From Minisyncoccia bacterium (GTDB lineage: Bacteria > Patescibacteriota > Minisyncoccia > SW-4-49-11): a stretch of DNA of 47,688 nucleotides. The notes under the pieces are model-generated. The model saw only the letters and a program-made list of their open reading frames with translations, ran no database searches and had not been told where the DNA came from. Positions within the stretch are counted from its first letter, which is position 1; each line of letters starts with the position of its first letter. This document shows positions 3,208 to 38,460 of the stretch, one piece after another. Location: assembly GCA_044341565.1 (NCBI GenBank), contig JBIIRM010000008.1, positions 1 to 47,688 of the forward strand. The letters run 5' to 3'. The translations under genes and the position numbers were made by a program.

Positions 3208-3208
3208 T

Positions 3209-11911: not shown

Positions 11912-14900
11912 ATGGGAGAATCATTTAGACAAATACCCGAAGATTATAGAGAGCCTAATGAACATGATAGAGGTTTAGAAAATGGTCAAGGACTTATAGA
12001 ATTTGTTTCTGCTTCAGTCAAAAAAAGGAATAGATTTAATAAGGAATTAGGGCCAGTCATTGGTATTACGGACACAGATAATTTGGCTAAATTAAGACGT
12101 AAACTTCAAGAAGAATTGACAATCCCACAGTTAAATGGTAATACATTAGATTTAGAAACAGTAAATTTTTTACGTAATCGTTATGGTTTTGATGCTTTAG
12201 GACAAGAAGAATATGAGGTACAGCAAAGCCAGACACAGGAAGTTGAAAATAGTGTTGAACAGTTAGCTCCAGAAGAAAAAATTAGTCTTAACTCCCTAAA
12301 TTCAGAACAAACTCAAATAGTAGAAGAGGAAACAGGAATAACTCCTGAAATACCAGCTGAGCAAGAATTGGTATCAGAAGTATTGTCACCCATACAGGAC
12401 CAACAAGATCAAATTACCCCTATTGCGGAAGAATCAATTCTTCAAAATCCTGAGCAAGTTGCTCCAAAAGAAGAATTGACTTCTGAAAATCCAGATGTAC
12501 AGGGAATGTTGGCTGAGGTCACAGCTATTGTAGAGGCGGAACAACAGGAGGAAGAAAAATTAGATGTACCTGAAGGAGGAGAAAATAAAGGAGAAGAGAC
12601 TGAAAGATTAACACAAGAAGCTCGTGAAACTATTGCTATATATCAAAAATTTGGACAAGAGCATCCTATTTTTACAAGAGATCAGGCAACGCAAGAGCGA
12701 TATCGTCAATTAGAAGCTGAAGCTTGGGGAGCTCAGAATAGACTTGCTCATATGAATGGGGGAGAAATTTTTGCTTTACCACAAAAAAGAGATATAGAAT
12801 TATCACATCCAGAAGCAAAAGACACAAAAGACTATCTGGAATCATTAGAATATGGATTTGATGAGAAGGGTAATATTATTACCATTAAACATCATAATAA
12901 AAATATAGAATTGAATCGACCTTATAGTGTGGCAAATTTGATAGATAAAGCTCGACCAGCACAAATACTTACTGATATTAATTTAGATAATATCGATACA
13001 GATCTACATCGTATAGGATATGTATTACCGGGTTTGAATCCCCAAACCCCAGACTTTATTGTGAGTACACTCAGCAAAGATGAATTTATACAAGGAGTGA
13101 TTGTTGATGATATTGTTCCCGAACAAGTAGTAACACCTGAAGCTAATCCAGAGATACAAGCTTCTAGTGTTTTATTTCCGCCCGAGCCAACGGCAGAACA
13201 ATTACCAATCACCCCAGTACCAGAAGTTAATCTTGAAGTAGAAAACTCTACGCTTGAAGTTGTGATAAGTCCAGAAATAGAACAAGCACCAATAAATCCA
13301 GATTTGGGAAGTTTATATTATCAAGAAATTCAATTATGGAATAATATTCAAGCATTAAAAGAGCGAAGAGAGCAAAAAGAAGCTAAAGAAGAAGATATTG
13401 ATACACAAATTGAAAAAGCCGAGTCAGATTATCAAAGTTTTATAAACACATTATGGGGAAGTGAATTGGGAAGACGTTTTGTCCAATTTCTTGATTTGCG
13501 TACAGAGAGTGCATATACTGAAGAGCAAAATAATAAATATGGTAGAGATAAAGGTTTATTAGAGAAAATTCGTGATAAATTCTCAAGAGAAGATGTATCA
13601 GATACAGAAGAATTAAGTCCTAAAGATCAGGAACTTAAGGCTAGAAATGAATATAATCAAGCTTTACAAGAATTAATTAGAACTGAATCAGCTATTGGAT
13701 TAGAATCAGAAATACAAACATTATTTGCAACTGAAGTACAGCGTTTGCGAGATGAAAGAATAGTACAATCTCAGGAATTACAAGAATGGGATCAAACAGG
13801 ACTTGAAAAAATAGCTAATTCAACTAAAGAAAAACTATTCAACTGGTATATTAAACATAAAAATACTATTGGTAAAGTTAATCTTGCATTATTTGCAACA
13901 AGTACAACACTAGCATTAACTGGAGCTGGACTACCTGTAGCAGGAGCATTAGAGGCTGTAAGGCGTACAATAGCATATCCTATGGCTTTTGCTTCTGGAG
14001 TATCAAGTAGAGAACTTATAAGGTCAAAATTTGAAGATGGGGATGTTAATATACTTAATATTATTAAATATAAAGGGGGAATTACTAAACTAGTAGGGGA
14101 GTCTCTACAAGGAAATTATATTCAGGAAGCTCAAGATACTGAACTTACTGCAAAACTTAGTACCCTGGAGTCTTATTATCGGCTTAATGGAGGTAAATTT
14201 ACTGAATTGTCTCAGCAAAAAGCTTATGAGTTGATATTAACTGAATTAGGGCAGAGAGTAGAAAATCAAAAAATTGATGATGTTAAACCAGATATAGAGC
14301 AACCTGAAGAGCAAGAGACTACAGCTAACACAGGATTAGATTATAATATTAATTTAAAAGATAATCCTATAGAACAAAATCCAAACTATGTTAATAGCTT
14401 ATTAGAGACAGTATCAGAAAAGCGTATTACAGAATTACAAAGACTACAAAGGAATAGAACTATTGCAAATGTAGCAGGAACAGTTGTAGCGGGATCACTA
14501 TTAGTCAATTTAGCGGCACATGCTATTAAACTTGATAAACCAGATATTGCAGATACTCCTGATAATCTGTCTGTTGGGACAAGTCCAGAGACTGCTACTC
14601 CAAATCCTACAGAAATATCTCCAGTTAAACCTGATATTCCATCTTCAGAAGGAGCTGAATCTATGAATGAGGTTGCAAAAGAAGCTACTCAGCAATTATC
14701 AACAGAACAATTACAAGATATCTCTGAATTAAGTAAGGGAGAGACTTTATGGGGAGAAATAGCTAAAAAATTAGGAGCGAATGCCAGTGAAGCCCAAATT
14801 CAACAAGGAGTAGAAACATATATGCAATCAACACAAGGTTCAGAAACTATATTTAATTTAGCAAATCAAACTGAGGGGGGAAGAGCTTTATTATCTCAAT

Positions 14901-15859
14901 GGGGGATTGATAATGCAGGAGAACTATCACAAGTATCAAAAACAGATTTATATGAATTATCTCGTCATCTAGGAGTAGGACAATTAAAGGGGTTAGATAC
15001 ATTAGATATTACTAATCTCCCTCCTCTTGATGAGGTATCAACTCCTACAGGATTAACTCCTCCTGAAAGTCCTAGTTCTGGAGTAACTCCTCCTGGACCT
15101 GGAGCCGAGTCTATTCCTCCAACTGATACTAATACTTTTGCTCGAGAAGTATCTCATACATTGCGTTTAGAGAATACCTCTCTCGATGATAATCAAGTTA
15201 AAGATATTTTGGAAGCATATCATTCCACTGAGCAGGGACGTAATTCTATGTATGAATTAATATTATCCGCTCCTGAAGGAGATACCTATTTATCTAATTT
15301 AGGTATTAAGACTATAGAAGATTTTTCAAATCTATCAGAGGATCAATTATATGAGCTTTCCCAGAGTATTGATTTAAACAAGCTTGAAGGATTTAATTTC
15401 AATAATATTATCTTATCTCGATTTGAAGATGCTCCAAACTCCATTCCATTGATAAAAGGAACCGGAGCTTTATCCCAAGTAAACCAGTATATTGATTTGT
15501 ATGCGGGAGCATTGCCATATAATTCTACTTTGGGACAAGAAGTATTAACTACATATTTGAATACCCCAGAAGGAAAAGATTGGCTATATGATGCTATTGT
15601 AAATAATCCAGATACATTAAATGGAAATCAAGGTATTCAAATTGCAAAAGAATATTTCCGACAAAAGGGTATACAACAGGGAACAGATATTGATTGGACA
15701 CTCTTAAGTGGAGATAAAAAAAATCCCACCTCAATTTTCTGGAGAGAGACCTCTTTGACAGGAGGAAGAAAAATCCCACCATTATCTACTCTTTTGAAAC
15801 CAGGTACAATGCCAGGTATCAAGAAAGCACTTGAGCAAGTATTAACATTAAAACAATAA
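11912..15859 (+). CDS. giant hypothetical protein (1315 aa): acidic, coiled-coil-rich, two central hydrophobic segments, Pro-rich linker, C-terminal HhH-like repeats
   Basis: Uninterrupted 3.9-kb ORF. It has long E/Q-rich stretches and hydrophobic segments (LALFATSTTLALTGAGLPVAGAL; IANVAGTVVAGSLLVNLAAHAI). A repeated motif reads LS..GI.....LS.VS...LYELS. I recognise no known catalytic motif. Confidence 0.65.
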   Translation: MGESFRQIPEDYREPNEHDRGLENGQGLIEFVSASVKKRNRFNKELGPVIGITDTDNLAKLRRKLQEELTIPQLNGNTLDLETVNFLRNRYGFDALGQEEYEVQQSQTQEVENSVEQLAPEEKISLNSLNSEQTQIVEEETGITPEIPAEQELVSEVLSPIQDQQDQITPIAEESILQNPEQVAPKEELTSENPDVQGMLAEVTAIVEAEQQEEEKLDVPEGGENKGEETERLTQEARETIAIYQKFGQEHPIFTRDQATQERYRQLEAEAWGAQNRLAHMNGGEIFALPQKRDIELSHPEAKDTKDYLESLEYGFDEKGNIITIKHHNKNIELNRPYSVANLIDKARPAQILTDINLDNIDTDLHRIGYVLPGLNPQTPDFIVSTLSKDEFIQGVIVDDIVPEQVVTPEANPEIQASSVLFPPEPTAEQLPITPVPEVNLEVENSTLEVVISPEIEQAPINPDLGSLYYQEIQLWNNIQALKERREQKEAKEEDIDTQIEKAESDYQSFINTLWGSELGRRFVQFLDLRTESAYTEEQNNKYGRDKGLLEKIRDKFSREDVSDTEELSPKDQELKARNEYNQALQELIRTESAIGLESEIQTLFATEVQRLRDERIVQSQELQEWDQTGLEKIANSTKEKLFNWYIKHKNTIGKVNLALFATSTTLALTGAGLPVAGALEAVRRTIAYPMAFASGVSSRELIRSKFEDGDVNILNIIKYKGGITKLVGESLQGNYIQEAQDTELTAKLSTLESYYRLNGGKFTELSQQKAYELILTELGQRVENQKIDDVKPDIEQPEEQETTANTGLDYNINLKDNPIEQNPNYVNSLLETVSEKRITELQRLQRNRTIANVAGTVVAGSLLVNLAAHAIKLDKPDIADTPDNLSVGTSPETATPNPTEISPVKPDIPSSEGAESMNEVAKEATQQLSTEQLQDISELSKGETLWGEIAKKLGANASEAQIQQGVETYMQSTQGSETIFNLANQTEGGRALLSQWGIDNAGELSQVSKTDLYELSRHLGVGQLKGLDTLDITNLPPLDEVSTPTGLTPPESPSSGVTPPGPGAESIPPTDTNTFAREVSHTLRLENTSLDDNQVKDILEAYHSTEQGRNSMYELILSAPEGDTYLSNLGIKTIEDFSNLSEDQLYELSQSIDLNKLEGFNFNNIILSRFEDAPNSIPLIKGTGALSQVNQYIDLYAGALPYNSTLGQEVLTTYLNTPEGKDWLYDAIVNNPDTLNGNQGIQIAKEYFRQKGIQQGTDIDWTLLSGDKKNPTSIFWRETSLTGGRKIPPLSTLLKPGTMPGIKKALEQVLTLKQ

Positions 15860-26361: not shown

Positions 26362-26952
26362 ATGCAGATTCAATGGCAAAATAATACGACAATTACAATA
26401 AAAGGAAAAGATTATCGGGTGATTATCAATCCTATTGAGGCTGAGGAGGGGAAATTTATTATACCTCAAAAAGAAAATGATTTATTGATTTCTACGAAAG
26501 CTGTGACAATAGCTGATGTGAAGGGATTTCATATTAATGGGGCTGGAGAATATTCTTATCAGGGAGTTACAGTCAGAGCTGCTGCAATTCGGCAAATTGA
26601 AGATGAAGATAAAATTAATCTTATTTCTCTTTCCGTAGAAAATATATTAGTGGCAATAGTATTTGGTATCAAAAAAGAATTAACTTCAGAGGATTTAGAA
26701 TTCATAGGGAGCCCAGATATTCTTGTATTATCATTGAGTGAATCATTTGGATCAGAGAAATCTCTCCATCTTATTAATGCTATTGAGCCTCGTATTGTAA
26801 TCCCGGTATATACACAGGATTCACAATTACAGGGATTAGTGAGTGAATATGGGGTAAAACAAGAGCCTCAAGATGATTTTAGTATCAAAAAATCAGAGCT
26901 TCCATTCGATACTGTCGAAATAAAACCTCTTATACAGCAGATTAAATCTTAA
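26362..26952 (+). CDS. hypothetical protein
   Basis: Clean ORF starting 7 nt after gatB. No recognisable motif. Confidence 0.5.
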
Positions 26953-26957
26953 AGACT

Positions 26958-29453
26958 ATGGCAGACGATACCAAAATTTCAACAATTGAGAATATAGGAA
27001 CTATTGAGCTTACAGATATTGTGGCTGAGATGGAGCGCGCCTATATTGATTATTCAATGAGCGTAATTGTAGATAGAGCTCTTCCTGATGTAAGAGATGG
27101 ATTAAAACCAGTGCACAGAAGAATTTTGTATGCTATGCATGAACTTGGTTTGAGGCCAGAAGCAAAATTCCGTAAATCAGCTACCATAGTTGGAGAAGTA
27201 CTCGGAAAATACCATCCTCATGGAGATACTGCTGTATATGATTCTTTGGTTCGTATGGCACAAGATTTCTCTTTGAGATATACCTTGGTAAAAGGACAGG
27301 GAAACTTTGGATCTATGGATGGTGACTCAGCTGCAGCTATGCGATATACTGAGGCTAAAATGGACAAAATTGCTCGAGAAATGCTTGTCGATATTGATAA
27401 GAAAACTGTCAATTTTATTCCTAATTATGATGGAAGTATAGAAGAGCCAACAGTATTACCAGCGAGAGTTCCTAATCTTCTTATTAATGGAGGAACAGGA
27501 ATTGCTGTAGGTATGGCAACTAATATTCCACCTCATAATTTAAAAGAAATTGTAGGAGCAACTATTGCTTTGATTGAAAATCCAGAAATTACTATTGAAG
27601 AATTATTACATTTTGTTAAGGGACCAGATTTCCCAACTGGAGGAGAATTATATAATATTGAAAATATTCGGCAAGTATATGCTACTGGAAGAGGACCTCT
27701 TGTTACTCGAGCTAAAGCTGAAATTGTAGAGCGAACCAAAAAGGGAAATGCTTTTGATATTATTGTCTCAGAAATGACATATCAAACCAATAAATCTACT
27801 TTGATTGAGAAAATGGCTAATATGGTCAGGGATAAAAAACTTGATGGTATTAAGGATATTCGAGATGAATCTGATAGAGATGGAGTAAGAGTAGTAATTG
27901 AGCTTAAATCTGATGCTTATCCACAAAAAGTTCTCAATAAATTATACAAATTAACTGATTTACAAAAAACCTATCATGTGAATATGTTGGCTCTTTGTGA
28001 TGGTATTGAACCTAAAACCTTATCATTAAAGCAAGCCCTACAATATTATATTATTCATCGTAAAGAAGTTGTAACCCGAAAAACTGAATTCGAATTACAA
28101 CAGGCTAAAGATAGAGCTCATATTTTGGAAGGACTCAAAAAAGCTCTTGATTTTATTGATGAAGTTATTACAATTATTCGAGGATCTGAGAGTAAAGAAC
28201 TTGCTAAAGTAAATTTGATTAAGCGTTTTGAATTCAGCACATTACAAGTTCAAGCTATTCTCGATATGAGATTACAAACTCTGGCTGGATTAGAGCGACA
28301 AAAAATCCTTGATGAATTAGCAGAATTATTAATCCTTATCAAAGAACTGGAATCAATTCTTGGTTCAGAAGAAAGAATTTCCCAAATTATTAAAGATGAT
28401 TTGAAACAAGTATCCGAGCAATATGGTGATGAGCGAAAAACTCGTGTATTCCAAGAAGAGTTAGGAGATTTTAAAGAAACAGACTTTATTCCTAATGAGG
28501 ATACTATTATTATTTTGACTAAGGATGGATATATTAAGCGAGTAGACCCTAAAGAATATCGTTCTCAAAGACGAGGTGGGGTTGGAATTTCTGGAGTTAA
28601 AACTCGAGAAGATGATTCGGTATCAATTTTCCTCCATACCATTACCCATGCAAAATTATTATTCTTTACTAATGATGGAAGAGTATTGAAATTGAAGGCT
28701 TATGAAATCCCACAAGGATCTCGTATTGCCAAAGGTCAATCTATTGTGAATTTCTTGGAACTTACGAAAGATGAGCAAATTCAATCCATTTTACCAACTG
28801 AGGATGCTTCAGATAGCTTTGTATCCATTGTTACCAAATTTGGTATTATCAAGAAAAGTGCAATGTCAGTATATTCCAATGTGAGAAAGGGTGGAATTAT
28901 TGCTATTAATCTCAAGGACAAAGATAGTCTTATACAGGCAACTATTACTCATCCTGATGATGATGTGATTTTATTTACAGCTCAAGGAAAAGCTATACGA
29001 TTTTCTCAAGAAGAATTAAGACCAATGGGAAGAACTGCATCTGGAGTAAAAGCAATTACATTAAAACCTGATGACTCAGTATTATCTATGCAAACAATTC
29101 GTTCTGGAGATGAGCAAGGATGGCTTGTGATTGCAACAGCCCAAGGATATGGTAAAAAAAGTAAATTAAGTCATTATAAAGTACAAAGACGAGGTGGGGG
29201 AGGAGTAAAGGTTTCTAAAATTACCACTAAAACTGGTCTTGTTATGGGAGCTCAAGTAGTAACCCCAGATAGTAAGGAATTGATCGCTATTTCTCTAGGG
29301 GGGAATATTATTAAGCTTAATATTCAAAAAGATATTCCGACCCTTTCCAGAGATACACAAGGGGTAAAAATTATGAGACTTAATAAAGATGATACTATTG
29401 CTTCAATCGCTGTTACTACGGAAGATGAAAAAGAAGAAGAAATAGAATCATAG
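26958..29453 (+). CDS. gyrA: DNA gyrase subunit A
   Basis: [32 protein letters not shown]; the active-site Tyr context [10 protein letters not shown]; C-terminal beta-pinwheel repeats. Confidence 0.95.
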
Positions 29454-29459
29454 AAATAG

Positions 29460-29488
29460 TTGACGATTTATAGGAATAACTATATACT
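29460..29488 (+). promoter_or_regulatory. sigma70-like promoter (TTGACG - 17 nt - TATACT) upstream of the methyltransferase gene
   Basis: TTGACG at 29460-65, a 17-nt spacer, and TATACT at 29483-88, in the gyrA-MTase intergenic region. Confidence 0.4.
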
Positions 29489-29516
29489 AGATACAGGTAT
29501 AAAATAAAATCTCATT

Positions 29517-30059
29517 ATGTTAGAAACCACTACTCGATTTCTATCACCTCGTGAAATAGTACAGCAATTTGATTTAGAAGTTGGTATGAAAATTGCTGAT
29601 TTTGGATCAGGGGCAGGAGATTTTTCTATTGCCATTGCTCAATATATTCAGCCTACAGGGAAAGTCTTTGCAATTGATGTGATGGAATCAGCTCATCAAT
29701 CTCTTAGAAGTAAATATAAAATTCAAGGAATTACGAATATTGAACTGATTTTGACTAATCTAGAGACTGAAACAGGTTCTACTTTACCAAAAGAATCAGT
29801 AGATAGAGTAATGATACATAATATTTTATTTCAAGTAAATGATAAAAAACATTTGCTCAAAGAAGCTCATAAAATCTTAAAAGATAAAGGAAAATTAGTT
29901 GTAATAGAATGGGATATTTCAAGTCCAATAGGACCTCTTAAATCATCAAGAATTCCAGAGAGAGAATTAGTGTCCCTGATACAGAATAATGGTTTTGAAA
30001 TTGATCATAAAATTGACTCAGGAAAATACCATTATGGATATATATTTAATAAATCATAA
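29517..30059 (+). CDS. class I SAM-dependent methyltransferase
   Basis: Motif I DFGSGAGDFS and the downstream acidic residue (AIDVME). Small single-domain MTase. Confidence 0.75.
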   Translation: MLETTTRFLSPREIVQQFDLEVGMKIADFGSGAGDFSIAIAQYIQPTGKVFAIDVMESAHQSLRSKYKIQGITNIELILTNLETETGSTLPKESVDRVMIHNILFQVNDKKHLLKEAHKILKDKGKLVVIEWDISSPIGPLKSSRIPERELVSLIQNNGFEIDHKIDSGKYHYGYIFNKS

Positions 30060-30061
30060 AT

Positions 30062-31408
30062 ATGGCAGGGAATAATTCTCTTGATTCATTTACCAAAAAT
30101 CGCAACGTAATTATTATTGCTGGTGTCGCTATATTAGCTATTGTTATATTGATGCTTGGTAATGCGCTTGGATTCAAAATTGGAGGTGAGAAAAAAGTAC
30201 AAAAAGCAAATTTGGTAGTATGGGGAGTCTGGGATGAAAGTGAGACAATGACGAAATTGGGAAGTGATTTTCGTAAAATATATCCTAATGTAAGTATAGA
30301 ATATCGTAAATTCAAGCCACAAGATTATGAGACAGAACTTATTAATGCTTTAGCTGAGGGACGAGGTCCAGATATATTGGCAATGGAGAGAACTTGGCTT
30401 GGTAAACATAAGAATAAGTTAGCCCCAATGCCAGAAGAAATTATGACACTCAAAGAGTATCAAGATACTTTTGTAGATGTGGTTAATCAAGATTTTATTG
30501 ATGAGGGTAAAATATATGGATTCTCTCTATACACCGATACTTTAGCATTATTATATAACAAAGATGCTTTTAATGATGCTGGAATTGCAAATCCACCAGT
30601 AACTTGGGAAGAATTACAAAGTATAGTACCCAAATTAACTAAAATAGATCAATTTGGTGAGATTAAACAGGCGGGAGTTGCATTAGGTACAGGAGATAAT
30701 ATAAATCGTTCACCAGATGTTTTGATGGCATTAATGTTACAGTCTGGAGCTCAATTTACTGACCCTAAAGATACTAGTAGAATTACTTTTTCTCAAAGTA
30801 AAAATGTCAATGGACAAAATATAAATCCTGCTCAATTATCTTTAGCTTATTATACCGATTTTGCTAATCCTCGAAAAGGAGTATATACCTGGAATTCAAC
30901 CTTAAATAATTCAATAGATGCTTTTTATGAAAGAGAAGTTGCTATGATATTTGGATATTCATATCAGGTAGAAGCAATTAAAGCAAAAGCCCCAAGACTT
31001 AATTTTGCAGTAGCTCCTCTCCCTCAGGTATCTACAGATTCTGGCCTTGCTAATTTTGCAAATTATTGGGGATATGGAGTAAGTGGTCAATCTAAATACC
31101 CAAAAGAAGCCTTTGCATTCCTCAAATCAGCCACTGAAAAGGAAAATGCTCAAGAGTATTTCTTGAAAACCAAGCGCCCAACAGCCAGAAGAGATTTAGT
31201 AGATACACAATCACAAGACATTGATTATGGAGTATTTGTAAAACAAATATTACAAGCTAAAACCTGGAGACAACCCGATAATAATTCAGTAGATAAAATA
31301 TTTATCAATGCTATTAATGGAGTAAATTCAGGATTACTTGACTATAGTAAAGCTATTTCGCAAGCTCAAACAGAAATACAGACATTAGCTGATAATGTGA
31401 AAAAATGA
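30062..31408 (+). CDS. extracellular solute-binding protein (ABC-type, family-1 carbohydrate-binding like) with N-terminal membrane anchor
   Basis: N-terminal TM anchor. LVVWGVWDE...Y...FEK and overall length and composition typical of SBP_bac_1. No permease or ATPase genes are adjacent. Confidence 0.7.
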   Translation: MAGNNSLDSFTKNRNVIIIAGVAILAIVILMLGNALGFKIGGEKKVQKANLVVWGVWDESETMTKLGSDFRKIYPNVSIEYRKFKPQDYETELINALAEGRGPDILAMERTWLGKHKNKLAPMPEEIMTLKEYQDTFVDVVNQDFIDEGKIYGFSLYTDTLALLYNKDAFNDAGIANPPVTWEELQSIVPKLTKIDQFGEIKQAGVALGTGDNINRSPDVLMALMLQSGAQFTDPKDTSRITFSQSKNVNGQNINPAQLSLAYYTDFANPRKGVYTWNSTLNNSIDAFYEREVAMIFGYSYQVEAIKAKAPRLNFAVAPLPQVSTDSGLANFANYWGYGVSGQSKYPKEAFAFLKSATEKENAQEYFLKTKRPTARRDLVDTQSQDIDYGVFVKQILQAKTWRQPDNNSVDKIFINAINGVNSGLLDYSKAISQAQTEIQTLADNVKK

Positions 31409-32730
31409 AATATATAAAGTTCAGTATAGTTTTTGGTATAATATTCTTAGTAGTTTCATTTTTTAGTATTAACTATACTAATGCACAGAGTGCAGATGGA
31501 GCTTGTAGTGCAGGGGCAACATCATTAGAGCAAAACTGTACTTTTCAAAATGGAAGCTCTCGTTTAAATGGAAAATGCCAGGTTAAAGATAAAAATAATC
31601 CAGGTTTAGGATTAACTTGTCGTACTAGCTTAGGATCATCCTGCTCAGGTGATACTTGTCAAAATGGATTAGCCTGTATTAATCAGGTTTGTTCCAGTCC
31701 AAGAGGGGCTAAAACTCAAGGTCAATCTTGTTCAGGGAATGGAAATGAATGTATTGCAGGTCTTGAATGTAGAAATTTTATATGTACAAAAGAAGCTGCC
31801 ATTACTGGTGGAGGGTCTGGGCAAACTGGAGGTGGTCAAGTCGGTACCCCTGGAGGCTCAACAGGGGCAGAAACAGGCCTTGTTAAATGTGGAGTGAGTC
31901 GAGATTGTACTATTTGTGATATATTTATCTTAATTCGAGATATCTTTAATTTTGCTTTAGGGCTACTAGCCTCACTCGCGGTATTAAGTGTTGTTATTGG
32001 TGGGGTCTATGTGTTGACTTCAGCAGGTAATCCTGGAGCGGTAAGTACAGGATATGGCATTATTACCAATGCAGTAATTGGACTATTACTCGTAATGGCA
32101 AGCTTTCTCTTATTTAGTTTCCTTCTTGTGGGGCTTGGATTTCAAGAACAAAATTTCTCAGCTGTACTTACTTTTCAACCAGGTAAAGTATTCGAGGTAA
32201 AATGTGATAATGCTAGTACTTTTAATGATAATGGATCAAATGGAGGAGGGTCTGCTGTACTGGGTAATGGTGGGAGTAACTCATCAACTATAAGTTGTGC
32301 GAGTTTAAATGATTCGGTTAAGGCGGATTTAAATAATGCTAGTTCTCAGACGGGTGTTCCTTCTGAACTATTGGCTGGAATTATGCAAAGAGAATGTCCT
32401 GCAGCCTTTAATAATGCTAATGCTTGTCCAAATGAAAATGGCTCTGGAGCAGCTGGAGCAGGTCAATTTTTACAAAGTAGCTGGAATGAGCTGGGATGTA
32501 GTGGAAGTAGAACGAATCGAAGAGATGCCCTTGTTTGTATGGGGAAACATTTAAAACGGTATAATAAATGTTCTAGTCAATGTAATGGATATTCTAATTT
32601 TTCATCCAGAGCTTGTTCTGATTGTGTGGCAGGAGATTATTGTGGTGCATGTTCAGGTTCATCAGCTTGTGGAGGTAATTATTGTGATGGGGTGTGGAGT
32701 AACTATCAAAAATTTAAAACATGTAAATAA
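31405..32730 (+). CDS. Cys-rich secreted protein: VirB2/TrbC-like pilin hairpin fused to a C-terminal SLT/VirB1-like lytic transglycosylase domain
   Basis: Signal peptide, then a Cys-rich module (many C.G..C spacings). Next comes a pilin-like two-helix region (GGVYVLTSAGNPGAVSTGYGIITNAVIGLLLVMASFLLF) homologous to the downstream small pilins. At the C-terminus SELLAGIMQREC...FNNANA...GSGAAGAGQFLQSSW matches the SLT signature (E-S...GLMQ). Confidence 0.65.
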   Translation: MKYIKFSIVFGIIFLVVSFFSINYTNAQSADGACSAGATSLEQNCTFQNGSSRLNGKCQVKDKNNPGLGLTCRTSLGSSCSGDTCQNGLACINQVCSSPRGAKTQGQSCSGNGNECIAGLECRNFICTKEAAITGGGSGQTGGGQVGTPGGSTGAETGLVKCGVSRDCTICDIFILIRDIFNFALGLLASLAVLSVVIGGVYVLTSAGNPGAVSTGYGIITNAVIGLLLVMASFLLFSFLLVGLGFQEQNFSAVLTFQPGKVFEVKCDNASTFNDNGSNGGGSAVLGNGGSNSSTISCASLNDSVKADLNNASSQTGVPSELLAGIMQRECPAAFNNANACPNENGSGAAGAGQFLQSSWNELGCSGSRTNRRDALVCMGKHLKRYNKCSSQCNGYSNFSSRACSDCVAGDYCGACSGSSACGGNYCDGVWSNYQKFKTCK

Positions 32731-32734
32731 TAAT

Positions 32735-33841
32735 ATGAATAAAATCTTCAGTCTATTTTTACTAATAGCATCTTTCTATTCTATTTCTCCAGTATATGCA
32801 GATACTAGTATATACTCAAGTTTCTTATATCCAAGTTTTGCTGTAAATAATGAAATTTTATATTTTGATCAATATGCAGGAGCTATTGTGAAACAAAATG
32901 TTATTACTGGTGAGAAGTCAGAGATATTTGATTTAATACCTTCTGCTACTAACTTAGTATCAATTTCTCCTGAACAATCTAAAATATTACTTTATCCTCC
33001 TAATATATCATTTCCAAAATATCAAGCACCATTTTTTGATAGTTCAAGAAAATCTCCCGATAATCAATGGTGGGTATATGATTTTAATACAACAAATAAA
33101 ATACTACTAGATGATAAAATTAATTTAGTTGGCTGGTATTCTGATAATGAAATTATATATGTATTTAATAATAAAGATATCACAGTTGCCCCAACCAATG
33201 ACCTATCTAAATTTAATATTCTATACTCTAATATACCATCTAATGTGGATATTAATAAACAAATTATAGCAAATGATAACCATCAAATAATTCCATTAGT
33301 TGATGGTTATCTTGTGGGAAATAAGAAAAACTTTGTATATCAAAAAAGTACTAATTATCAAATTTCAGCCAATCCAAAATTGAATTATTTTTTGGAATAT
33401 AATAATAGTCAGATAAAAGTTTTTGATTGGGATAGTAAGCAAGTAGGTAGTATTATTAATATCAGTAACAGGAAAGCTTTGTTACTGAATAATGATACTA
33501 TAGCTATATTGGCTACAAATGGTAATTTGATACAATATAATTTACAAGGGCAGGAGCAATCAAATGTATCATTAAATCCAATAGTTACTGATATATATTC
33601 GGTTGATCAATCTGGAAATGAACTATTAATTAATCAAAATAATCAAATACGTACTTATAATTTATTAAAAAAAGAGCAGGGAACCATCCTATTATCCACC
33701 AATACTCCTACTCCTAATACTGACACAAATTCAGAGACAGAACAATCCAACACATTAGGGAATATTGCTATTTTAATAGGAGGAATAGTATTCCTTGCTG
33801 GGGGACTGGGGCTATTTATTTGGAAATTAAGAAAAAGATGA
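32735..33841 (+). CDS. secreted repeat/beta-rich protein with C-terminal TM anchor
   Basis: The ATG at 32735 gives a signal peptide MNKIFSLFLLIASFYSISPVYA. A long N/S/Y-rich body follows. The C-terminal anchor is GNIAILIGGIVFLAGGLGLFIWKLRKR. The ORF-track start at 32585 would overlap the upstream gene. Confidence 0.6.
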   Translation: MNKIFSLFLLIASFYSISPVYADTSIYSSFLYPSFAVNNEILYFDQYAGAIVKQNVITGEKSEIFDLIPSATNLVSISPEQSKILLYPPNISFPKYQAPFFDSSRKSPDNQWWVYDFNTTNKILLDDKINLVGWYSDNEIIYVFNNKDITVAPTNDLSKFNILYSNIPSNVDINKQIIANDNHQIIPLVDGYLVGNKKNFVYQKSTNYQISANPKLNYFLEYNNSQIKVFDWDSKQVGSIINISNRKALLLNNDTIAILATNGNLIQYNLQGQEQSNVSLNPIVTDIYSVDQSGNELLINQNNQIRTYNLLKKEQGTILLSTNTPTPNTDTNSETEQSNTLGNIAILIGGIVFLAGGLGLFIWKLRKR

Positions 33842-33871
33842 TATAATTAAAAATAATTAAATACAGATACT

Positions 33872-34711
33872 ATGAAATTAATCATATCTACAGCATTTGG
33901 AATTGTCTTTGCACTAGTATTCTTTAGTAATTCTAATATAACACTTGCTCAATGTGGAAGTGGTCCAAGCTGTACAGGGAATTTTGTTTGTGTGAACGCA
34001 GATGGTACTCCTAAATGTTTGCTAAATCAGGTTAGTAATAATGGTTTATGTGAGGGCGACTCTTCTGTGAAATGTTCAGCAAATCAAGCTTGTATTCAAA
34101 ATAATGCAACAGAAATTGTATGTGCCCCTTTAGCGGGATCATCAGCTAATACAAATTTACCAGGTTCTGGAAGTACAACAACTTGTCCAACCTGTAAATC
34201 TGGTGAAACATGTATTAAGAGTGCAGCAGGACCACTCGTATGTAGATCCGCCGCTACAAATTGTACTCCTGCTTGTACAACAGGTAAGGTGTGTGTTAAA
34301 GCAACGCCAACAGCAACTACTGGAACTTGTGTAGATAATGCGCCTACTCAAGCTGCTGGAGGAGCTGGTGGTAATGGTGCTGGAGGGAATGGATCTTCAG
34401 GAGGAAGTGGTGGTGGCTTATTAGAAGGTCTCAATGCTTTTGGTAGTGCAGATTCTGGACTTAATACAGAGGGAACTCTCATTGGGTTTATTTCTAATAT
34501 TATTCGTTGGATATTAGGACTTCTTGGAACTGTGTTCTTTGTAATCATAGTTTTACAAGGGTATCTTTATATGACATCTTCAGGAGATGCGAGTAAAACA
34601 GCAGCAGCTACGGGGGCTATTACTAATGCAGTAATAGGACTACTGATTATTATGGGAGCTTTCCTCATTACTAATTTTGTGACAAGTGGTTTGATTGCCG
34701 CTGGGTCTTAA
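33872..34711 (+). CDS. Cys-rich/Gly-rich secreted protein with C-terminal VirB2/TrbC-like pilin hairpin
   Basis: Signal peptide, then Cys-rich repeats (C...C.....C), then a G/A/N-rich linker. The C-terminus IIRWILGLLGTVFFVIIVLQGYLYMTSSGDASKTAAATGAITNAVIGLLIIMGAFLI is shared with the paralogs. Confidence 0.65.
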   Translation: MKLIISTAFGIVFALVFFSNSNITLAQCGSGPSCTGNFVCVNADGTPKCLLNQVSNNGLCEGDSSVKCSANQACIQNNATEIVCAPLAGSSANTNLPGSGSTTTCPTCKSGETCIKSAAGPLVCRSAATNCTPACTTGKVCVKATPTATTGTCVDNAPTQAAGGAGGNGAGGNGSSGGSGGGLLEGLNAFGSADSGLNTEGTLIGFISNIIRWILGLLGTVFFVIIVLQGYLYMTSSGDASKTAAATGAITNAVIGLLIIMGAFLITNFVTSGLIAAGS

Positions 34712-34721
34712 TATCTTATAT

Positions 34722-35069
34722 ATGATAGAAGCATTTATATCCAATTTCATCATAGTAACAGCTAAAGCCCAGGAGACATCGCCTCCTCCTATATTAGCTA
34801 TACCTACAGGAACAGGAGTGGGGGAGCAAGGAGATCTGTTTACTTTTGTGTCAGCTATTGTGCAATGGGGATTGGGATTAATAGGGATAGTATTATTTGT
34901 ACTTATACTCTTTTCTGGATTCCAATATGCAACAGCAGGGGGCGACTCTAAAAAAACTGAAGAAGCTATTAGTAGAATTACTTCTGCAGTAATCGGAGTA
35001 TTCATTGTAGGGGTGGCTTTTATACTATCCAATGCAGTATTAGGATTTGTTTTTAGTCTAGGATCTTAA
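34722..35069 (+). CDS. small VirB2/TrbC-like pilin paralog
   Basis: Signal peptide MIEAFISNFIIVTAKAQE. ...IVQWGLGLIGIVLFVLILFSGFQYATAGGDSKKTEEAISRITSAVIGVFIVGVAF. Confidence 0.65.
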   Translation: MIEAFISNFIIVTAKAQETSPPPILAIPTGTGVGEQGDLFTFVSAIVQWGLGLIGIVLFVLILFSGFQYATAGGDSKKTEEAISRITSAVIGVFIVGVAFILSNAVLGFVFSLGS

Positions 35070-35097
35070 TATACTGACTTATCCACAATAGTATCAC

Positions 35098-35126
35098 TTG
35101 CATAGTAATATAAGATATGATAGTAT
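35098..35126 (+). promoter_or_regulatory. sigma70-like promoter (TTGCAT - 17 - TAGTAT) for the pilin gene at 35170
   Basis: TTGCAT at 35098-103, a 17-nt spacer, and TAGTAT at 35121-26. Confidence 0.35.
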
Positions 35127-35169
35127 AAAAACATAGAACATATTATTCAATAATTATTAAGATATTCTT

Positions 35170-35553
35170 ATGAATACTTCCCAGATAAAATCAATAGCAA
35201 CAAGAGCATTATTACCTGTATTAGTATTAGCTCCTACTTTAGCTGGAGCTGCAACTCCCATAAAAGATACTAGAGTCATAGGTGAAATACCTCAAGTAGC
35301 TGGTACTAATCAATCTACTGACCTTGTGGCTACAGTACAAGTGGTTATTCAATGGGCATTAGGATTTATCGGAATTGTAATATTCATTATTTTCTTATTT
35401 GCAGGATTTGAATATGCAACAGCAGGAGGAGATGAAGGAAAAGCAAAAACTGCACAGTCTCGAATGATTAACGCGGTAATTGGACTTATTATTATATTCT
35501 TTGCCTTTGTAGCTTCAAATGCAATATTGTCATTCGTATTCCCAGGAAATTAA
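35170..35553 (+). CDS. small VirB2/TrbC-like pilin paralog
   Basis: Signal peptide. ...VIQWALGFIGIVIFIIFLFAGFEYATAGGDEGKAKTAQSRMINAVIGLIIIFFAF. Confidence 0.7.
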   Translation: MNTSQIKSIATRALLPVLVLAPTLAGAATPIKDTRVIGEIPQVAGTNQSTDLVATVQVVIQWALGFIGIVIFIIFLFAGFEYATAGGDEGKAKTAQSRMINAVIGLIIIFFAFVASNAILSFVFPGN

Positions 35554-35574
35554 TCAAATTGATAGATACTATGA

Positions 35575-35611
35575 AACAATAAAAAGGGATTATATCCCTT
35601 TTTATTGTTTA
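35575..35611. terminator. perfect 16-bp palindrome (AAACAATAAAAAGGGA ttata TCCCTTTTTATTGTTT), likely a bidirectional terminator
   Basis: Exact inverted repeat with a 5-nt loop, 22 nt after the stop of the 35170 pilin gene. Confidence 0.55.
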
Positions 35612-35641
35612 GAGAATACATATTCAAATAGTATAATCTTC

Positions 35642-35670
35642 TTGTCAGATAATAGAATACTTGATATACT
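35642..35670 (+). promoter_or_regulatory. sigma70-like promoter (TTGTCA - 17 - TATACT) for the pilin gene at 35698
   Basis: TTGTCA at 35642-47, a 17-nt spacer, and TATACT at 35665-70. Confidence 0.35.
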
Positions 35671-35697
35671 TGTAATATATAGAATAGTAAAATAGAT

Positions 35698-36114
35698 ATG
35701 AGAGTCTTATTGATTATAATAGCTTTATTGATGGGGGTATTTGTATTAAGTTCTAATATATCTCTAGCTCAAAGAGCCCCTGATGCCACTCTCCCTGGTC
35801 CAGGAACAATCCCAATTAATACCGGAATAGCTGAGGGACCAAGCTTGATAGAAACAGTGTCTATTATTATAAGGTGGATATTAGGATTTATTGGAATTAT
35901 AATATTTATTATATTCCTATATGCAGGATTTGAATATGCAACAGCAGGAGGGGATGAGAAGCAGGCTGAATCAGCTCAAAAAAGAATGGTAAATGCAATC
36001 ATAGGACTGATTATTATATTCTTTGCATTTGTATTGTCGAATGCAGTATTAAGCTTTGTATTTCCTCCAGACGATACAGTAGATGATCCTAATATGCCAT
36101 TAAATGTAAATTAG
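35698..36114 (+). CDS. small VirB2/TrbC-like pilin paralog
   Basis: ...IIRWILGFIGIIIFIIFLYAGFEYATAGGDEKQAESAQKRMVNAIIGLIIIFFAF. Closest paralog of 35170. Confidence 0.7.
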   Translation: MRVLLIIIALLMGVFVLSSNISLAQRAPDATLPGPGTIPINTGIAEGPSLIETVSIIIRWILGFIGIIIFIIFLYAGFEYATAGGDEKQAESAQKRMVNAIIGLIIIFFAFVLSNAVLSFVFPPDDTVDDPNMPLNVN

Positions 36115-36115
36115 T

Positions 36116-36556
36116 ATGAAATATCTATCAATAGTAATAATTGCAATAATGATACTAATGAGTAATCCTTTTATTAGCTTTGCAGGTACCCCATCAGGGG
36201 GAGGAACTACTCCAGCTACGGGTGGTACTCCATCAGGGGGAGGAACTACTCCAGCTACGGGTGGTACTCCCACAACCCCAACTGACAATACTTCTGCTCA
36301 AAGTGTAGGATTTGTGAATCCAATTCGATTTAATTCTATCCCTGAGCTTATAGCAGGTATTATCAATGCTCTCTTGGGTATACTCGGAGCTATTACTGTG
36401 GCAATATTAGTGATGTCAGGATTTAAATATATGACAGCTTCTAATCCAGGAGCAGTAGGGCAAGCTTTAGATGGTATTAGGAATGCAATTGTAGGACTTA
36501 TGATTATTATGGGGGCTTTTCTCATCACACAATATATTATATCTGCTTTGGTGTAA
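36116..36556 (+). CDS. small VirB2/TrbC-like pilin paralog with exact tandem 13-aa repeat in the linker
   Basis: The ATG sits 1 nt after the previous stop. GTPSGGGTTPATG is repeated, encoded by an exact 39-bp tandem duplication (36191-36229 = 36230-36268). The C-terminus is GIINALLGILGAITVAILVMSGFKYMTASNPGAVGQALDGIRNAIVGLMIIMGAFLI. Confidence 0.7.
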   Translation: MKYLSIVIIAIMILMSNPFISFAGTPSGGGTTPATGGTPSGGGTTPATGGTPTTPTDNTSAQSVGFVNPIRFNSIPELIAGIINALLGILGAITVAILVMSGFKYMTASNPGAVGQALDGIRNAIVGLMIIMGAFLITQYIISALV

Positions 36557-36612: not shown

Positions 36613-37323
36613 TCAGCGAGCTTGTATCACTGGGTATCCAGATTGCCCACCTGGCATCTTCTGGTAATATTCATAATCATTATTAACATCTGCTCCGATA
36701 TTAAATTTCCTTTTAATATCGGGAGTATATTGTTTACCAAATACTCCTAGGGATATTTTGATCCTTTTCCCAGAAAGTGATGAAGGTAAATCGTGGCATT
36801 TAGCGTAAGGCTCAATAACCCTCCAATTGTCACCAATGGTAACCTCTTGATTTATCCAGTGTTTCTCTGGATGGCCAGTCTGTTTGAAGCAGACCTTGAG
36901 AGGTCGTGCTGGGAGATCATACTCACCATCACGATTGATCACGATGGGAGTCATTTCCCCGGGGGGATTGAGTTGTGCCTGCCTTGCACTATGTATGCTC
37001 TGGTTGAAGTTAGCTGAGCAATAGTTCAAGAGGAGAATTACTCCAATCACAGTAGCAGCAAACCTGAGCTTGCTATTGAGTACCGCTGCAATTATAGTAA
37101 TGGCCATCAAAAAGAATATCTCACCATCAGAAATACTTCCTCCGATGAGAATCATTTTGGCCCCCAACCAAAGACCAGCCAAACTAATCAGTAAAACTGA
37201 CCAGTTCAGTCCGCGAGCTTTACTCCACAAATTCCCAGAACTTGCCGGAGATGGGGAGGAGTTTGTGGATGATGAGGTGTTTGAGCCTCTAGATCCACGG
37301 GACCCGTATTGACGATTTGTCAT
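36613..37323 (-). CDS. hypothetical membrane protein (Ser-rich N-terminus, ~3 TM helices, C-terminal soluble domain)
   Basis: Clean ORF. Its G+C is visibly higher than the flanking pilin genes. It has its own promoter and terminator. Confidence 0.6.
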   Translation of the reverse strand: MTNRQYGSRGSRGSNTSSSTNSSPSPASSGNLWSKARGLNWSVLLISLAGLWLGAKMILIGGSISDGEIFFLMAITIIAAVLNSKLRFAATVIGVILLLNYCSANFNQSIHSARQAQLNPPGEMTPIVINRDGEYDLPARPLKVCFKQTGHPEKHWINQEVTIGDNWRVIEPYAKCHDLPSSLSGKRIKISLGVFGKQYTPDIKRKFNIGADVNNDYEYYQKMPGGQSGYPVIQAR

Positions 37324-37434: not shown

Positions 37435-38460
37435 TCAGTCTTTGGAAGCTTCGAGAGCTCCCAGGACTTGATTTGCTATATCTTGCCCTTTACCCCCTCC
37501 ATGGAAAATAACTTTGGCATTGGTACCAAGAGTTTTTTCCAAAATAGGATATTGGGCGAGTTTAGCAAAAAGCTGTTGCTCTGAGATATCAGAGCCCATT
37601 GCTCCAGCTTTAATTGCAGCTGTGAATCCTTTGGTTTCAGCCAATAGATTCTCATTCTGTTGCTTAATAACCAGACCACGGGCTGTCTCGCGATCGAGAT
37701 CAGCTTTTTGCTCAGCTTTTGCTATGGCAGATTTATTCTTGGCATCATTGACCTCGGACGGTAACTCTAAATCATCTATATTTATTGCAGATAGCTCAAT
37801 ACCAATATTATCTAGTTTCTTCAGAATGGTCTTACCAAGAGCAAGAGCTTCAATATCCTCTGTAGTATCCATACCCTTAATACGAGATCCATCTTGCTCC
37901 AGACCAAGAGCTTGAAGTAATTGATCAGGAGTCATTGTAGATATTTGAATATCCTGAACCTCTTTACCCGCAGCTATATGCTTGGAGTATTCTTGATAGG
38001 TATGTTGTTGCAGTACTAGACGAATATAAGGGTTCAAGATGCGTTCAGTTGCCTGACGTTCATCCTGATCCTCTGCATTATAGTGCAAGTTATAAACATG
38101 CTTTATTTTTTCCTGCAGAGTATTTCCTTTAATTTGAGCAATTACGCTAACTCTTGCTTCTAGAGTAACATCAGCCAATTCTAATTTGGCAAAGTCATCA
38201 GTACTAGGAGCATCAGATCTATCCTGAGGGGCTACTTTTCTAGGCCCGTCATGTCTAAAAAGATAGACAGGAAACTGGTTGGTTTCATACCATCCAGCTA
38301 ATTTTGATCCCGGTACAATCAGATGAGGTCCCGGAGTAGCAATTTTGGAAAGAATTCCACTCCCATTATGATTTGGACGGCTTCCTAACCATGAAATCAC
38401 ATGAACTTCATCATCAGGTACAATCCAGATAGGGGGGATAAAGAAAGAATCAAAGGCCAT
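37435..38460 (-). CDS. SPFH/band-7 (stomatin/prohibitin/flotillin-like) domain protein, no N-terminal TM helix
   Basis: N-terminus VPDDEVHVISWLG....ILSKIATPGPHLIVPG resembles the SPFH core (V.ERFGK...L.PGLHF.IP). The central region is charged and A/E/K-rich, coiled-coil-like. Confidence 0.7.
   Translation of the reverse strand: MAFDSFFIPPIWIVPDDEVHVISWLGSRPNHNGSGILSKIATPGPHLIVPGSKLAGWYETNQFPVYLFRHDGPRKVAPQDRSDAPSTDDFAKLELADVTLEARVSVIAQIKGNTLQEKIKHVYNLHYNAEDQDERQATERILNPYIRLVLQQHTYQEYSKHIAAGKEVQDIQISTMTPDQLLQALGLEQDGSRIKGMDTTEDIEALALGKTILKKLDNIGIELSAINIDDLELPSEVNDAKNKSAIAKAEQKADLDRETARGLVIKQQNENLLAETKGFTAAIKAGAMGSDISEQQLFAKLAQYPILEKTLGTNAKVIFHGGGKGQDIANQVLGALEASKD

Follow-up and report, generated by a model that had tools for sequence, protein, structure and literature searches.

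A six-gene array of VirB2-like pilin paralogs in Minisyncoccia includes a conserved fusion to interchangeable, predicted muralytic domains

A pilin array at a fixed chromosomal site

The subject of this work is a gene cluster in a 47,688-nucleotide stretch of DNA from a Minisyncoccia bacterium (contig JBIIRM010000008.1 of assembly GCA_044341565.1), referred to below as the window. Six of its plus-strand genes, named here pil1 to pil6, encode proteins that share one two-helix, pilin-like module. We favour, with some reserve, the reading of this locus as a VirB2-like pilin array, i.e. the set of structural subunits of the monoderm-type (MPF-FATA-related) type IV secretion system (T4SS) of Patescibacteria, encoded at a constant position in the chromosome and separately from virB4. 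As an array, it is not new and belongs to a kind already described in Patescibacteria. What appears not to have been described before is the conserved fusion of a pilin to muralytic domains of interchangeable types, the sharply bounded replaceable segment in which this domain lies, and the fixed six-member set located away from virB4.

All six proteins match the Pfam family PF18895 (T4SS_pilin), with E-values from 8e-6 to 1e-10. Five of them, pil2 to pil6 (35.9-41.6 bits), pass the gathering threshold of 26.6 bits, and pil1 falls just below it with 26.3 bits. In the wider pil1 family, 25 of 25 fusion homologs match PF18895 (best E-value 3.5e-10).

Between gyrA and rpsL, the plus strand carries, in this order, genes for a methyltransferase, a solute-binding protein (SBP), pil1, a protein that we call mid, and pil2, pil3, pil4, pil5 and pil6. 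The features of the locus are listed below.

30062-31408, plus strand: SBP, matching PF01547 (SBP_bac_1) at E=1.7e-28; N-terminal transmembrane (TM) anchor (TM segment 10-42), no cysteine
31405-32730, plus strand: pil1, pilin::muralytic fusion of 441 aa; PF18895 26.3 bits, 57 homologs, helices in the AlphaFold2 (AF2) model
32251-32727, plus strand: type-A lysozyme-like/lytic-transglycosylase-like domain of pil1, predicted from profile, Foldseek and PHROG matches and from invariant residues
32250-33678, no strand: replaceable segment comprising the pil1 muralytic domain and the mid ectodomain (aa 1-314), bounded by the blastn breakpoints against loci L012 and L003
32735-33841, plus strand: mid, a non-pilin, β-propeller-like protein; propeller matches of profile A7, TM segment 340-365
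33872-34711, plus strand: pil2, 279 aa, made up of four Cys-rich mini-modules, a linker rich in Gly and the hairpin; PF18895 37.9 bits
34722-35069, plus strand: pil3, minimal pilin-like protein of 115 aa (orthologs 111-113 aa); PF18895 41.6 bits
35170-35553, plus strand: pil4, minimal pilin-like protein of 127 aa whose inter-helix loop is charged; PF18895 35.9 bits, NF045849 38.2 bits
35574-35610, plus strand: terminator-like hairpin with a 17-bp stem in the pil4-pil5 gap; ΔG -19.9 kcal/mol, z -6.3
35698-36114, plus strand: pil5, minimal pilin-like protein of 138 aa, with promoter-like sites upstream (35608-35670); PF18895 39.8 bits, NF045849 40.6 bits
36116-36556, plus strand: pil6, 146 aa, with a Gly/Thr/Pro-rich repeat extension and a hairpin with an uncharged loop; PF18895 39.5 bits

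An earlier sequence-only reading of the window had described six consecutive genes on one strand, all of them ending in the shared module and preceded by a secreted repeat protein. The open reading frames (ORFs), their common strand and the module were confirmed, and the module consensus given there matches our alignments A1 and A4. However, mid (the supposed preceding repeat protein) lies inside the set, between pil1 and pil2, and the module of pil1 is central rather than terminal, with 195 aa following it.

The pilin module

Further support for the family assignment comes from NCBIfam model NF045849, the Mbov_0395 family, which describes a pilin-like conjugal transfer protein of Mycoplasma integrative and conjugative elements (ICEs). 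At a cut-off of 40 bits, pil5 passes (40.6), while pil4 (38.2), pil6 (34.1), pil3 (32.6) and pil2 (28.0) remain below it; these five non-fused paralogs align over nearly the full 80 positions of the model. For pil1 there was no match to NF045849.

Hydropathy analysis identified, in each pil protein, a hydrophobic signal-like segment at the N-terminus and a pair of TM helices, and the A-x-A/Q context of signal-peptide cleavage is present in four of the six. In the AF2 models, the hairpin of pil5 is formed by residues 50-81 and 87-121, with a predicted local distance difference test (pLDDT) score of about 85-92, and the corresponding helices of pil1 span residues 169-205 and 210-243. Based on sequences and models, the predicted topology of the six PF18895 proteins is signal segment - outside - TM - inside - TM - outside.

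The copies differ in what surrounds the hairpin. As was noted before, three of them are minimal: pil3, pil4 and pil5 are bare hairpins of 115, 127 and 138 aa with a charged loop, and the modules of pil4 and pil5 are 71% identical. In pil1, pil2 and pil6 the loops are uncharged or weakly charged, and extracytoplasmic extensions are present. The Cys-rich and Gly-rich N-terminal extensions reported for two copies are found in pil2, with 16 cysteines in its four mini-modules and a Gly-rich linker, and in pil6, with its Gly/Thr/Pro-rich extension. The pil2 extension is poorly conserved between genomes. That of pil6 includes a 39-bp tandem repeat at 36185-36270 (2.2 copies, 97% match), which encodes GTPSGGGTTPATG units. 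Among the pil6 orthologs, lengths lie between 146 and 321 aa, a spread that suggests expansion and contraction of the repeat, and the pil6 module is 89% conserved.

[quoted passage not shown] Judged by this definition of monoderm VirB2-like proteins, pil3, pil4 and pil5 agree in all three respects. The pil6 protein agrees in size and topology and has an uncharged loop; pil1 and pil2 lie above the size range.

A pilin fused to a predicted muralytic domain

The pil1 protein consists of a signal-like segment (aa 1-28), a Cys-rich N-extension (aa 29-157), a conserved core (aa 158-282) that includes the TM hairpin (aa ~169-243), and, as its last part, a GH23-like domain (aa 283-441). Given that the signal segment is cleaved and that two TM helices follow, the predicted location of both extensions is the extracytoplasmic side, where peptidoglycan is. 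All 30 cysteines of pil1 are outside the hairpin: 12 in the N-extension, 3 just before TM1, 1 just after TM2 and 14 in the C-terminal domain.

Fifty-seven cluster-level homologs of pil1 were collected. Their near-invariant core reads GLVKCG.SRDCT.CDIFILIRDIFNFALGLL…VIGGVY.LTSAGN…ITNAVIGLLL..SFLLFSF.L..LGFQ..NF…F..G..F.V.CD..S.FN..G., their N-termini are variable and their C-termini are strikingly heterogeneous. Motif sorting distinguished at least five C-terminal types:

Type A (present in the window): motif MQREC…GAGQF; rare
Type B: motif YYE…YGRYQ; phage-lysozyme-like, the majority type, matching a PHROG endolysin family
Type C: motif AMAES…YGLWQINM; passes Pfam SLT and SLT_3
Types D1 and D2: motifs IDEGEG… and IDTENADG…CGILQL

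Thus, other members of the family carry a bona fide SLT domain (PF01464/PF18896) or a phage-lysozyme-type domain at the same position, and on some of them PF18895 already stands beside PF18896/PF01464 in precomputed Pfam annotations. The fusion seen in the window, which the sequence-only reading regarded as unusual, is real, and the pilin::muralytic proteins are, on sequence evidence, a conserved family with interchangeable C-terminal domain types.

A single-sequence search of the pil1 C-terminal domain against the PDB returned a chance match to alkaline phosphatase, and a profile was needed instead. The type-A profile A5, built from 12 sequences, matched Slt35/MltB of E. coli (E=6e-4) and g-type (goose) lysozyme (E=0.014), and also MltC, MltE and phage transglycosylases; in the alignment with Slt35, a glutamate of pil1 falls on the Slt35 catalytic region. 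The AF2 model of the domain has a pLDDT mostly of about 80-90, and nearly all of its top 50 Foldseek matches are GH23 enzymes, the best being a GH23 chitinase, goose lysozyme, MltC and the phi6 lysin (prob ~1). The PHROG "transglycosylase" family was matched as well (E=1.8e-4), and a relative, P0187, passes Pfam SLT (23.1 against a threshold of 21.3) in the region homologous to type A. The residues invariant in type A are E (Glu330), G..Q (351-355, the GAGQF motif starting at aa 351), D, Y.G and Y, an arrangement that matches the motif pattern of family-1 SLT enzymes. The codon of the candidate catalytic Glu330 is at 32392-32394.

Together, profile, fold and PHROG matches identify the pil1 C-terminal domain as a divergent, predicted GH23-type muralytic (lysozyme-like) domain, in agreement with its earlier description as SLT/VirB1-like. 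Its catalysis is a prediction, compatible with both lytic transglycosylase and hydrolytic lysozyme activity, between which the sequence cannot separate. In an exhaustive search of 1.84 billion representatives, the type-A domain gave 18 matches at E≤1e-3, mostly pilin fusions from more distant lineages.

TrbC/VirB2 pilins are subject to head-to-tail cyclisation. In pil1, near-invariant cysteines flank the hairpin on its outer side: Cys162, Cys168 and Cys171 before TM1 (C-x5-C-x2-C, 31888-31917) and Cys267 after TM2 (32203-32205). By a loose analogy with such cyclisation, these four residues could clamp the ends of the hairpin by disulfides. The conserved segment after TM2 (LGFQ..NF…FN..G) has a low-confidence model. 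One distant pilin::type-A fusion (P0180, positions 3553-4932 of L032) has an extra N-terminal region with a weak match to GDSL/SGNH hydrolases (E=0.002); if this match is real, the region may act as a de-O-acetylase of peptidoglycan alongside the transglycosylase.

A segment replaced between closely related strains

The neighbour of pil1, mid, combines a signal-like segment, a β-propeller-like ectodomain, a Thr/Pro/Asn-rich stalk, a C-terminal TM anchor and a basic tail. Searched alone, it had no Pfam match. Its profile A7 matched designed and WD40-type propellers (Scone, E=3.8e-6), and its homologs gave weak matches to WD40, PD40 and PQQ.

We compared the window with three loci from close relatives (L012, L003 and L014), whose GyrA is 98-99% identical to that of the window. 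Proteins of the locus are 76-99% identical, with the exception of the pil1 C-terminal domain, the mid ectodomain, the N-extensions of pil2 and pil6, and the two minus-strand genes described below. For the first two of these, the pil1 domain and the mid ectodomain, there is no detectable similarity to the counterparts in the three strains. The boundaries are sharp: blastn against L012 gave 92.1% identity over 26901-32249, ended at 32249 and resumed at 33679/33680, with nothing detectable between. The same two breakpoints were found against L003, with 87.4% identity in the last piece before the first of them (31868-32249).

In the more distant L015 and L013 (GyrA ~90%), on the other hand, the type-A domain is 87-90% identical to that of the window. 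A domain that is close in distant genomes and replaced in near-identical ones means that the history of the segment is incongruent with that of the genome; recombination between conserved flanks is implied as the means of exchange. In the alignments, closely related strains replace the enzyme domain, in some cases along with part of the following gene, while the predicted membrane hairpins stay fixed.

The two halves of the segment also go together across the family. The long β-propeller-like ectodomain of mid is restricted to type A (4 of 4 cases); with types B, C, D1 and D2, mid has an ectodomain of a shorter family. Moreover, two distant lineages have a type-A pilin fusion directly followed by a homolog of the long mid (E=6e-24), with no pilin array, beside envelope polysaccharide genes. 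This recurrence suggests that the pair is a unit in its own right.

Conservation of the six-gene set

Relatives found by scanning species-representative genomes come from metagenome-assembled genomes labelled Parcubacteria, Paceibacteria, Paceibacterota or Minisyncoccia, with two records labelled Saccharibacteria. In every locus that was long enough, gene order is constant: gatB, a metallo-β-lactamase-fold gene, gyrA, the methyltransferase gene, the SBP gene, pil1, mid, pil2 to pil6 and, on the minus strand, genes for a TM protein and an SPFH protein. The array occupies this fixed site (gyrA…rpsL) in at least 11 Paceibacteria/Parcubacteria genomes. With the mini-pilin profile, each of the 11 complete loci, the GyrA sequences of which differ by up to ~10%, yielded six genes with the module, neither more nor fewer, and their order and size classes were the same throughout. 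An array that is syntenic in this many genomes is not a product of chance.

Between positional orthologs, module identity is 68-89%, compared with 24-65% between different positions; pairwise values among the paralogs are 19-71%. This argues that the six are old, individually constrained and differentiated paralogs, and not an interchangeable set serving antigenic variation. The constant number, order and size classes, together with the orthology, indicate at the sequence level that the six have non-redundant roles under purifying selection.

The two records with a deviating label are L012 and L019, both named "uncultured Candidatus Saccharibacteria". The GyrA of L012 is 99% identical to that of the window, L019 does not include gyrA, and the other close relatives are labelled Parcubacteria/Paceibacteria. 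The label is probably a taxonomic mis-assignment.

Transcription signals

Each minimal copy had been credited with its own promoter and/or terminator. Promoter-like matches number 57 against 40±6 expected, which is barely above the AT-rich background, and this part of the proposal holds at one place only, the pil4-pil5 boundary. There, the 144-nt gap contains the 17-bp hairpin between an A-tract and a T-tract, followed by the promoter-like sites upstream of pil5. The consensus terminator scan had missed this hairpin, and it was found by reading and folding the sequence.

An equivalent hairpin is present in the same gap in most of 10 other loci (L003, L005, L007, L011, L012, L015, L019 and L021), while L014 and L016 have larger gaps that fold differently. 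Across genomes the stem changes are compensatory (GGGAT/ATCCC vs GAGAG/CTCTC). In the first part of the array the junctions are tight: the SBP stop and the pil1 start overlap by 4 nt (ATGA), and the gaps that follow measure 4, 30 and 10 nt. Between pil5 and pil6 there is 1 nt. Given the hairpin after pil4 and the promoter-like sites before pil5, the sequence suggests that the array is probably organised in two transcription units, SBP…pil4 and pil5-pil6.

Comparison with known systems

In a survey of Patescibacteria (Quiñonero-Coronel et al. 2025, PMC12102498), 441 VirB2-like arrays of 2-11 genes were found in 383 assemblies, with an average identity of 25% and with the genes in tandem or separated by one non-pilin gene. 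The same survey reports a pilin gene near virB4 in 1,135 of 1,948 Patescibacteria assemblies and the lack of VirB1 in most genomes that bear VirB2. The locus studied here, with six genes of low identity and one interruption (32735-33841), falls within this description. Like the published arrays, it is chromosomal, consists of several divergent tandem paralogs of PF18895, and has no relaxase or coupling protein nearby. Unlike them, it is not in or beside a virB4 cluster, at least within the window, and one of its members is fused to a muralytic domain that is replaced, together with the neighbouring ectodomain, between near-identical strains. A pilin-lysozyme fusion is not mentioned in PMC12102498, in its text supplements or in the literature that we could search.

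For Southlakia epibionticum ML1, a series of pilins was found to be essential (Wang et al. 2023, PMC10633639). A review (PMC12857230, 2025) counts six VirB2-like pilins in this species, the same number as in the window, and speculates on a pilus or conduit. In view of the published arrays and of the essential series, the locus cannot be presented as an undescribed appendage system, as was done in the sequence-only reading.

Similarities extend to the VirB2-like proteins of Gram-positive plasmids, such as PrgF of Enterococcus pCF10. These share with the array the monoderm envelope, the size of 50-150 aa, the topology and the charged loop; they too have almost no similarity to Gram-negative VirB2, and PrgF has been proposed to form a wall-spanning conduit on VirB6. 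On the other hand, PrgF is encoded by a single gene in a plasmid T4SS operon, whereas here there are six differentiated chromosomal paralogs, three of which bear predicted extracellular extensions. The Mycoplasma proteins of NF045849 differ in that they are single genes borne by ICEs.

In Agrobacterium (VirB1 and VirB2) and other MPF-T systems, a GH23 wall-cutting enzyme and a two-helix pilin are encoded side by side. In 7 of 8 classical MPF-T loci that we examined, the lytic transglycosylase gene is immediately upstream of virB2, so the functional pairing has a precedent. The A-x-A/Q cleavage context of four pil proteins is a further point of resemblance. In those systems, however, enzyme and pilin are made as two proteins, the transglycosylase gene being the first, and VirB1 is a soluble secreted protein encoded in a virB4-containing operon. 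In pil1, the order is reversed: the hairpin comes first and the enzyme is C-terminal, membrane-tethered behind two TM helices, with no virB4 nearby. Thus, pil1 may work like VirB1, but it is not a member of the VirB1 family.

Tandem amplification of pilin genes is known also from the VirB2 sets of Bartonella and Anaplasma, which have been read as a source of antigenic variation (cited in PMC12102498). Here, positional orthology argues instead for fixed and distinct roles.

A proposed role for the array and its alternatives

If the locus is indeed the pilin set of a Patescibacteria T4SS, pil3, pil4 and pil5 would be its bulk subunits, inserted by Sec, extracted and polymerised on a VirB6-like platform powered by a VirB4 encoded elsewhere. 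The product might be a short pilus or a wall-spanning conduit, as proposed for PrgF in Gram-positive T4SSs, with pil2 and pil6 as minor or decorating subunits. The pil1 protein would dock at the assembly site via its pilin hairpin and open the peptidoglycan locally, as a tethered equivalent of VirB1, and the β-propeller protein mid would be its partner. The conserved terminator after pil4 could set different expression levels, and hence the ratio, of the two halves of the array.

A number of observations weigh against this interpretation. The Pfam TrbC model (PF04956) gave E=0.34 for pil5, with 11.6 bits against a threshold of 27.9. When the mini-pilin profile A4 was compared by hhalign with eight annotated VirB2/TrbC proteins, the alignment was topologically sensible and had a probability of 2.6% (E 0.018); the eight proteins were taken from plasmids with a VirB2 query that was 99% identical to real records. 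The same profile had no match among PDB sequences, and fold searches with the pil hairpin returned generic helical hairpins only, a result that is uninformative for such a fold. Strict membership in the classical TrbC/VirB2 family is not supported by these sequence comparisons, and homology to experimentally characterised VirB2/TrbC is not demonstrable from them. Of the claim that the proteins are VirB2/TrbC-type T4SS pilins, what stands is the assignment to a family named "type IV secretion system pilin" by Pfam and NCBI. For the enzyme domain, Foldseek E-values are modest, starting from 7e-3, and in the window's own pil1 it is below the Pfam SLT thresholds, with only SLT_2 at E=0.084 (12.5 bits vs 24.3).

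The genetic context adds to these points. As had been stated before, no virB4, virB6, virD4 or pilus ATPase gene is present in the 47.7-kb window; virB3 was not found there either, and no virB4, virB6, virB3 or virD4 occurs among the called genes within ±10 kb of the related loci that were read in this way (the 13 genome-collection loci were scanned only for the pilin module and segments of the locus). With neither virB4 nor virB6 in the window or in the related flanks, dependence on a T4SS is suggested by analogy with other Patescibacteria. Furthermore, no pilus has been observed in any Patescibacterium according to the reviews consulted, and pil1, which has a bulky domain at either end, would probably not fit into a helical filament as a subunit.

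These difficulties lend some weight to a different view, which we consider possible but clearly less probable, namely that the two-helix module is a membrane anchor or a hetero-oligomeric scaffold which displays extracytoplasmic domains, forms no filament and works independently of any T4SS. Three of the six proteins do carry passenger domains, no assembly ATPase or VirB6 is encoded within ±10 kb in the related loci read for called genes, structural matches are limited to generic hairpins, and the link to VirB2 is statistically unsupported. The distant pilin::lytic transglycosylase fusions with their β-propeller partner, which stand beside envelope polysaccharide genes and away from any array, would also agree with a display function. 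Such a scaffold, however, leaves the strongly conserved bare hairpins of pil3, pil4 and pil5 with nothing to display. It also sits poorly with the fact that the family adjoins virB4 in more than 1,000 Patescibacteria assemblies and is essential together with the T4SS in S. epibionticum, and with the passing of one paralog over the NCBIfam cut-off for a Mycoplasma ICE pilin-like conjugal transfer protein.

The idea of the sequence-only reading that interchangeable, independently transcribed paralogs change a surface filament by antigenic or phase variation is improbable. It can appeal to the multiplicity and the divergence of the modules (19-71%), to the presence of at least two probable transcription units and to the way in which the tandem VirB2 paralogs of Bartonella and Anaplasma have been read. 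Against this, every paralog has its positional ortholog in the 11 complete loci, and number, order and size classes do not change. A tandem-repeat scan of the array found only the pil6 repeat (inverted repeats were not searched for), and neither an invertase/recombinase family match nor silent copies were seen in the window. The variability that does exist is found between strains and is confined to the extensions and the replaceable segment.

Least of all do we expect the locus to be the remnant of a mobile element or prophage, such as the pilin set of a conjugative element or a holin-like two-TM protein fused to an endolysin. The family takes its name from conjugation systems, and the muralytic types resemble phage enzymes, as seen in the PHROG endolysin and transglycosylase matches and in the JGI names "muramidase (phage lysozyme)". 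Yet the array is fixed between gatB-gyrA and rpsL-fusA, its GC content is about that of its flanks, and in the genomes read no integrase, relaxase, coupling protein or phage gene, structural ones included, was found at the locus. Among 2.9 million viral contigs there was no relative of the fusion, and the pilins had no PHROG match; a phage origin was rejected. Nor did tblastn of pil5 match anything in 72,556 plasmids. In addition, a signal segment and a Cys-rich ectodomain are unlike a holin.

Possible significance for host contact

Patescibacteria account for a large share of bacterial diversity, and in the single species tested, epibiotic growth requires a T4SS-like machine with its pilin series. 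How this machine crosses cell walls is the question that the present locus addresses. It shows that at least one Paceibacteria clade, and some lineages further away, can carry a predicted wall-opening activity as part of a pilin paralog. It also provides concrete candidates for the wall-opening step, for major as opposed to minor subunits and for determinants of host specificity at the level of strains.

More speculatively, the replaceable segment, i.e. the muralytic domain of pil1 either alone or along with the β-propeller ectodomain, might be a determinant of host range, with the pilin-tethered enzyme aimed at the peptidoglycan of the host and not at the cell's own wall. We regard this as a tentative proposal that is rather unlikely to be correct. 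If it were true, the enzyme would open the host wall so that a T4SS-like conduit could reach the host membrane, and recombination at the conserved flanks would let strains swap enzyme types and so adapt to different hosts. The orphan, co-transcribed SBP of sugar type might then capture the released glycan fragments.

Neighbouring genes and other features of the window

The window is low-GC (~33-40%) chromosomal DNA with housekeeping genes, including ftsK, eno, recJ, metG, gatB, gyrA, rpsL-rpsG-fusA and a gene for an AcrB-like transporter. FtsK (3164-5365) was considered as a coupling protein and ruled out, as it carries the FtsK alpha and gamma domains.

The SBP gene is directly upstream of pil1 in every related locus read. 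The protein had been taken for a lipid-anchored one; having no cysteine, it cannot be a lipoprotein, and it carries an N-terminal TM anchor instead. Neither the window nor the called genes within ±10 kb of the related loci read include an ABC permease or ATPase for it. It is an orphan, TM-anchored, sugar-type SBP beside a pilin array.

Two minus-strand genes follow the array, and their membership in the system is uncertain:

36613-37323, minus strand: multi-TM protein, convergent with the array; TM region aa ~41-106
37435-38460, minus strand: SPFH/Band-7 protein, a conserved neighbour; PF01145 E=5.8e-6

The first of them had no family match in Pfam or NCBIfam. A gene matching Band_7 is at the same position in L003, L005 and L007, although the match is weak or faint in two of the three. 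Between strains with 98-99% GyrA identity, the multi-TM protein is 26-40% and the SPFH protein 54-59% identical. The pair is thus a second hypervariable patch, which has kept its position beside the array.

An ORF of 1315 aa (11912-15859, plus strand) lies between genes for a sugar transferase and a DUF5663 protein; it had no Pfam, NCBIfam or PDB sequence match. T4SS components were looked for in this and in the other unannotated ORFs of the window, and none were found. Finally, a 691-aa protein encoded at 696-2771 on the plus strand has a prepilin N-terminal methylation motif (PF07963, TIGR02532, GspG-like N-terminus), two LamG-like domains and FN3. It looks like a giant type IV pilin or a pseudopilin-like adhesin, and would belong to a surface system unrelated to the T4SS-type pilins.

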